Source: Escherichia phage vB_Eco-B1.1
Direction: 5' to 3' (one strand)
DNA: 64,000 nt
Sequence record: ON871820
Below the pieces are notes generated by a model, which searched no databases, was not told the origin of the DNA, and saw only the letters and a list, made by a program, of their open reading frames with translations. The position numbers and the translations under genes are program-made. Shown here in pieces: positions 43,439-43,900 of the stretch (the stretch's first letter is position 1; every line of letters starts with the position of its first letter).

Positions 43439-43900
43439 ATGATTATTAATGAAAGCTCTTGGCACTATAAATTATTCAAAATGTTTAATGATGAATGGAA
43501 ATGACCTAAGACACTATGCGCGTATTTTTGGTCTATTGTTATTCCTACATTTTTCGTTTCTTTTTTCGGATGCACTATACTCGCAGGTCTAACTATCATC
43601 TGTGCAGAAATCATACAGAAATGGCTTATTTTTGGTAGTTTATGGACTCTTATTCCATCAGCATTTATACTTGCTATTTTGCTTGTTTTACTTATTATCG
43701 GTTCATTTGTTATTCCTGCACAACTGCATGAAAAATATAAAGATTATAAATGGAAAAAGGATTATGCTTTACATGTAGAAAATATTGATAGGGCGTATAA
43801 AGGTTTACCTCCTATTCAACCCAAGAAATCTATTATCGTCGAATTTTTAAAAGCGCGTAAAGCTAAAGTATGTCCTGTTATTGAATATAAGGCTGAATGA
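43439..43900 (+). CDS. membrane protein ORF interrupted by a single in-frame TGA (readthrough candidate or nonsense pseudogene)
   Basis: ATG at 43439 with AAAGGA RBS; 21 codons, then TGA at 43502-43504 followed by C, then the same frame stays open 132 codons encoding three hydrophobic segments to the stop at 43898-43900; the track shows only the TTG-initiated tail from 43679. Confidence 0.4.

Follow-up and report, generated by a model that had tools for sequence, protein, structure and literature searches.

The window analysed here is a stretch of 64,000 nucleotides from Escherichia phage vB_Eco-B1.1 (sequence record ON871820). It is a segment of a Tequatrovirus (T4-like) genome, read in the direction of early transcription, and megablast matched it to hundreds of T-even phages at 90–99% identity. 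Within it, an open reading frame for a membrane protein is interrupted by a single in-frame TGA at its 22nd codon, after which the same frame stays open to the end of the gene (Table 1). A tandem pair of y05I/mobD.1-like genes (T4_y05I_N + T4_y05I_C), at 42375–42908 and 42915–43436, lies directly upstream. The second gene of the pair corresponds in position to RB32ORF097c, annotated as "similar to mobD.1", and 2 nt separate its TAA from the ATG at which the interrupted gene starts. At the other end, the interrupted frame closes at TGA 43898–43900, in an ATGA overlap with the start codon (ATG 43897) of nrdC.11.

Table 1. Features of the interrupted membrane-protein gene and its immediate neighbours in the window.
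Feature	Position	Strand	Remarks
Second y05I/mobD.1-like copy, putative transcription factor, 173 aa	42915..43436	+	Pfam T4_y05I_N 2e-34, T4_y05I_C 2e-23
Shine-Dalgarno-like GAAAGGA	43427..43433	+	5 nt before ATG 43439; read from sequence
Codons 1-21 of membrane-protein gene, MIINESSWHYKLFKMFNDEWK	43439..43501	+	Bear the near-invariant S7-W8-H9 motif
Premature opal stop TGA, codon 22	43502..43504	+	Ancestral Arg CGA; C-to-T transition at 43502
Codons 23-153	43505..43897	+	Two predicted transmembrane helices and a basic C-terminal cytoplasmic region with the K-A-x-K-x-K-x-C-P motif
73-aa TTG-started ORF, gene-caller's fallback	43679..43900	+	No recognisable Shine-Dalgarno
nrdC.11, RlaP-type nucleotidyltransferase	43897..44910	+	Pfam RlaP 2e-11, phrog_388 6e-137

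An initial annotation of this locus had described a start at ATG 43439, 21 codons, a TGA followed by C, continuation in the same frame and an ATGA ending, all of which we could confirm in the sequence. It had also counted 132 codons beyond the stop; the open frame does continue, but it comprises 131 sense codons (23–153). The base after the premature TGA, the C at 43505, is the first base of the Pro23 codon. The GAAAGGA preceding the gene is identical in the aligned sequences of phages HY01, W143 and RB32. That the downstream part has no ATG or ribosome-binding site of its own, as the initial annotation stated, also held: all four ATGs between 43505 and 43700 are out of frame, and the first canonical in-frame start past the premature stop is the TTG at 43679, with no in-frame ATG, GTG or TTG before it and no Shine-Dalgarno sequence. 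For these same reasons reinitiation after the premature stop was rejected, and codons 23–153 are translated only with read-through of the UGA. The 73-aa ORF that begins at the TTG is unlikely to be a real product.

Counts of promoter-like and terminator-like sites internal to the region were at chance level, indicating that the interrupted gene is an internal cistron of a polycistronic run. The downstream gene, nrdC.11, is preceded by an AAGG of its own that is predicted to be unpaired in the fold of 43860–43930, and so we see no reason to expect strong translational polarity on nrdC.11.

On its sequence, the interrupted gene is the T-even accessory membrane protein RB32ORF096c / phrog_944, a 153-aa protein with two helices in the inner membrane. 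The translation read through the stop matched a cluster of 153-aa proteins (P0001, 543 member sequences) with E = 7e-97, and matched phrog_944 ("membrane protein") over residues 1–152 with E = 1e-49. This homology is present on both sides of the premature stop, which shows that the interrupted gene is real rather than a chance pattern. A tblastn search with the read-through protein returned 855 phage records at ≥80% coverage. Similarly, a library-wide HMMER search found 343 cluster representatives (50% clustering), most of them aligned from residue 1 to ~151. That these alignments start at residue 1 identifies the 21 N-terminal codons as a genuine, conserved part of the protein.

An intact CDS of 462 nt and 153 aa is annotated in the identical slot in HY01, W143, RB32 and Mosigvirus ST0. 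It is named "signal-peptide domain-containing protein" in HY01 (AHK10948.1) and "membrane protein" in ST0, and the annotation note of RB32ORF096c reads "similar to RB69ORF104c...; replaces mobD". Most T-even phages have the gene in this slot, and the order mobD.1-like genes, membrane gene, nrdC.11 is common to HY01, W143, RB32, ST0, IME08 and further loci (L023–L032). In T4 itself, the homing-endonuclease gene mobD fills this slot, directly upstream of nrdC.11, and the insertion site of mobD has been listed as nrdC.11/mobD.1 (PMC2988022).

The window copy shares with the RB32ORF096c family the slot, the ATGA overlap and the length of 153 codons, and differs in that it alone has TGA in place of the Arg22 codon. 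Once codon 22 is restored, the amino acid identity is 99–100%. Among 101–135 diverse members, C27 and C145 are invariant and S7, W8, H9, L26, Y29, A139, K143 and P146 are near-invariant; the family-invariant residues are all present in the conceptual translation of the window. Two motifs, S-W-H(Y) at the N-terminus and K-A-x-K-x-K-x-C-P at the C-terminus, are near-invariant in the family. An uninterrupted reading frame marks a functional member, and because the window copy has TGA at codon 22 we assign it to the family as a nonsense allele.

An AlphaFold model built from the family alignment (pLDDT 92.5) placed transmembrane helices at residues 26–61 and 68–90, in agreement with a Kyte-Doolittle profile. 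The initial annotation had counted three hydrophobic segments beyond the stop; both predictions instead give two long hydrophobic helices. The remainder of the model consists of strands at 2–4 and 149–151 and helices at 8–16, 94–120 and 132–144. As the model has no strands besides these two, one at each extreme terminus, they are presumably paired, and the N-terminal piece and the C-terminal region would then form one cytoplasmic domain. The histidine and the two invariant cysteines could speculatively bind a metal. No significant match to relatives of the membrane protein was obtained in Pfam, NCBIfam or PADLOC, sequence and fold searches of the PDB gave nothing credible, and a BFVD search returned only uncharacterised phage membrane proteins.

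Variation of a mosaic kind was noted at this gene and elsewhere in the window. In some Tequatrovirus genomes (PP355091.1, positions 24956–25429; L032) the membrane-protein gene is present as a Mosigvirus-like allele of 157 aa with only ~55% identity, set in a backbone that is otherwise 96–97% identical, which points to allelic exchange of the gene between T-even genera. The tRNA cluster of the window (26687–27701) has 11 genes (Gln, Leu, Gly, Pro, Ser, Thr, Met, Tyr, Asn, His, Arg). The corresponding region of phage 235Ecol030PP has eight tRNAs with a segB homing-endonuclease gene among them; the window has no segB match but possesses tRNAs for Tyr, Asn and His in addition, so that the tRNA region differs in a mosaic way. 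A 202-aa ORF at 30308–30916 is 97% identical over its first 77 residues to a 97-aa protein of 235Ecol030PP and then diverges. To judge from the alignment, it is a mosaic or alternative C-terminal allele, and no lesion in the window.

Comparison of codon 22 among relatives revealed the likely origin of the stop. In the alignment, the TGA of the window differs by a single base from the CGA of HY01, W143 and RB32. Ten further loci with an identical upstream protein have Arg at this codon (CGA in eight, CGG and CGT in one each), as do Mosigvirus ST0, 235Ecol030PP, Dhakavirus IME08, T2 and three IMG/VR contigs. The synonymous variation between CGA, CGG and CGT indicates that Arg22 is kept by selection among close relatives. 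Across the inspected orthologs the codon was Arg, or Met in one Klebsiella phage, and a conserved stop was not encountered; deeper in the family the position is more variable (R 25, I 17, P 17, M 13 and V 10 of 135). Hence, as far as the aligned codons tell, the stop is one mutational step from a conserved sense codon, CGA to TGA, by a transition at 43502. The comparison with relatives that the initial annotation had proposed thus finds a sense codon at this position and an intact ORF, with the UGA nowhere conserved, an outcome that it had named as evidence against read-through.

We searched for other copies of the TGA allele with 32-mers centred on the T, so that each megablast seed was forced to include that base. 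TGA-centred 32-mers with either the window flanks or RB32-type flanks had 0 matches in 50,697 phage genomes, and the CGA control 32-mer matched 57 genomes at 100%. The best match to a 70-mer over the stop among the 50,697 phage records was 69/70. In IMG/VR, both the exact TGA 28-mer and a degenerate codon-aware pattern were absent.

Several candidates for a shared lesion were examined and rejected. Seven matches to the TGA pattern in metagenome and genome collections (L009–L015) were due to chance, lying in unrelated DNA of 48–60% GC with no tblastn similarity. In OK148441.1 and KX130864.1 (2265–2486 in each) only the 73-aa TTG-started ORF is called, though an intact 153-aa protein with CGA at codon 22 is encoded. 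From the DNA, these calls are annotation artefacts, and the 73-aa family phrog_22816 is probably made up of such shortened annotations and not a real protein. An ENA scaffold (L008; ERZ28566042 scaffold_8203, 543 bp) with exactly the same 73-aa product also has CGA at codon 22. Its stops are others, TGA at codon 12 and TAG at codon 20, located in a mismatch-rich contig end (mismatches within the first ~100 bases, 1–120), and are probably the result of a low-quality or chimeric contig end and not biology.

The lesion appears to be recent as well as isolated. With the Arg restored, the protein is 100% identical to that of W143. Between the two genes there are 11 nucleotide differences, namely the nonsense change and ten synonymous ones. 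Together with the protein identity, this is indicative of purifying selection until very recently and of no decay since. We also compared the window with 100 annotated CDSs from a 50-kb stretch of PP355091.1, and for 83 of these the window had a clean, full-length counterpart in a single frame; the others reflected mosaic presence or absence or divergent alleles. An in-frame stop was found in only this gene, in a screen that used a lowered identity threshold and was anchored on annotated CDS ends, its allele in PP355091.1 being only ~55% identical.

Considered together, our data make it highly likely that the CGA-to-TGA change in the window is a recent and isolated nonsense mutation in a T-even membrane-protein gene that is conserved but dispensable. 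This corresponds to the first of two possibilities raised by the initial annotation, a recent nonsense mutation, and is favoured by the single-base change, the intact relatives and the restriction of the UGA to the window sequence. A C-to-T transition at 43502 would have turned the conserved Arg22 codon CGA into TGA in one genome. Ribosomes would then mostly release a 21-residue peptide, so that the gene would be effectively knocked out. As a CGA-to-TGA opal mutation in a gene of a T-even phage, the allele resembles the classical opal (UGA) mutants of T4.

Such a loss is probably tolerated because the locus is dispensable. The nrdC.11–mobD.3 block is among the large fragments lost in a viable genome-reduced T4 (PMC9825161). 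Other broken alleles of the same gene also exist. In T2 (AP018813.1, 732–1181), an independent 2-bp deletion near codon 34 causes a frameshift, and frameshifted protein calls of the gene were found in phages TadeuszReichstein and vB_EcoM_CE1 and in metagenome contigs (P0003–P0008, P0010, P0011). These are loss-of-function alleles, as in the window, but they are frameshifts elsewhere in the gene, whereas the window lesion is a stop-creating substitution; where codon 22 of such an allele could be examined (T2), CGA is kept. The label "prohead core protein" on the T2 copy looks like a misannotation that has been propagated.

It is possible, although unlikely, that the loss was adaptive, that is, that the TGA allele owed its selection to the host used for isolation or propagation, where the intact protein was costly, for instance by triggering a host defence or by excluding something useful. 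This reading is contained in that of a nonsense allele, to which it adds a reason for the loss. Nonsense mutation of a non-essential phage gene is a well-known route of escape from defence, and the repeated, independent breakage of the gene in T2 and in the frameshifted calls, along with its replacement by mobD in T4, would fit such selection. However, the searches of PADLOC and NCBIfam gave no match to a defence or anti-defence family. Disruption affects only a small fraction of the family (roughly 24 of ~620 member sequences), some apparent truncations are annotation artefacts, and neutral loss in a dispensable locus fits the data equally well.

The main alternative to a real mutation is a sequencing or assembly error, in which the true codon would be CGA and the T at 43502 a wrong consensus base. 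The involvement of a single base in only one sequence is compatible with this, and exact look-ups of the 73-aa ORF, nrdC.11, the first y05I-like protein and an allele-specific antisense ORF recovered no second, independent assembly, but we judge it improbable. The change is a substitution rather than a homopolymer indel, and CGA to TGA is a classic spontaneous transition. Furthermore, the remaining window is clean, with all 83 comparable CDSs intact and single-frame, which is not the picture of a sloppy assembly and makes a real mutation likelier than an error. A minority variant fixed during laboratory propagation may also account for the allele.

An additional consideration is whether the UGA is decoded at an appreciable level. 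According to the passage of PMC5289835 that cites Poole et al. 1995, termination with C at +4 is inefficient in E. coli, especially at UGA-C, and the initial annotation, which called UGA-C the leakiest context, agrees with that source. Basal read-through of UGA via Trp-tRNA in K-12 is ~2% at 37 °C and 4% at 25 °C (PMC10570021). As for the Q-beta A1 read-through protein and the leaky UGA-C context of prfB, low-level read-through by Trp-tRNA is to be expected at the UGA-C of the window. Plausibly, then, the Trp-tRNA of the host would read the UGA a few percent of the time, yielding a little full-length R22W protein by incidental and unselected read-through. Such a product might be active, because distant homologs have hydrophobic residues at position 22.

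The context of the stop does not appear to have been selected. Proline occupies position 23 in all close relatives and in 103 of the 135 family members, and since the Pro23 codon supplies the +4 C, any CGA-to-TGA change at this site lands in UGA-C automatically. Read-through would therefore be an accidental by-product of the ancestral Arg-Pro dipeptide (CGA-CCT). We regard as improbable, to about the same degree as a wrong base call, that the TGA allele is non-neutral and acts as a one-step reversible dosage switch, with either the off state or the leaky trickle of R22W protein selected on the host. That the stop happens to fall in the weakest termination context known might be taken as a sign of selection for partial function. 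If true, the switch would serve, for example, to avoid a host defence that senses the membrane protein, and the repeated disruptions in T2 and other phages would represent repeated selection rather than neglect.

The second possibility raised by the initial annotation was that the full-length product is made at a low level by read-through of the UGA, as would suit a toxic membrane protein. In known cases of programmed read-through the stop is conserved and a functional extension is appended after a complete protein. Unlike these, the stop in the window is found in one genome, lies at codon 22 inside a conserved domain and not at a domain boundary, and has no conserved stimulatory element. Predicted folds of the RNA 3′ of the UGA are not more stable than those of shuffled sequence (z = +0.6 and −0.8), an Rfam search found no recoding element, and 3 of 63 ordinary long ORFs in the window likewise terminate at UGA-C. 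Programmed or selected read-through that limits a harmful membrane protein could draw on the weak terminator context and the basal read-through cited above, on the wholly undecayed downstream ORF and on the tolerance of hydrophobic residues at position 22. We nevertheless consider it very improbable, given the 0 versus 57 matches of the TGA and CGA 32-mers, the +4 C dictated by Pro23 and the lack of stimulatory structure, Rfam element or suppressor tRNA. The toxicity of the protein was unsupported speculation: hundreds of phages express the intact gene, and full dosage is not generally harmful.

Decoding of the UGA as selenocysteine or by a suppressor tRNA can be dismissed almost entirely, as nothing beyond the in-frame UGA itself speaks for it, no hairpin above chance or SECIS-type Rfam match was found 3′ of the UGA, ARAGORN identified no UGA-reading (UCA) anticodon among the 11 tRNAs of the 64-kb window, and the orthologs have Arg, not Cys or Sec. 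A UGA suppressor derived from the tRNA-Arg of T4 exists, and a UCU-to-UCA change in this tRNA would in principle restore the original Arg. The tRNA-Arg of the window was considered as such an opal suppressor and rejected: its anticodon is the wild-type UCU, indicating that no such suppression operates.

These data indicate that the finding is an ordinary one, in which no new recoding mechanism is revealed. Its main consequence is for annotation: the locus is best entered as a pseudogene or a nonsense allele of the gene for the 153-aa membrane protein, and neither as a 73-aa TTG-started gene nor as a read-through gene. The allele adds one more data point for the dispensability of this accessory gene in T-even phages. 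In addition, the TGA window copy and the CGA copies of W143 and HY01 form a natural, near-isogenic pair that is usable to probe the function of this widespread family of membrane proteins.
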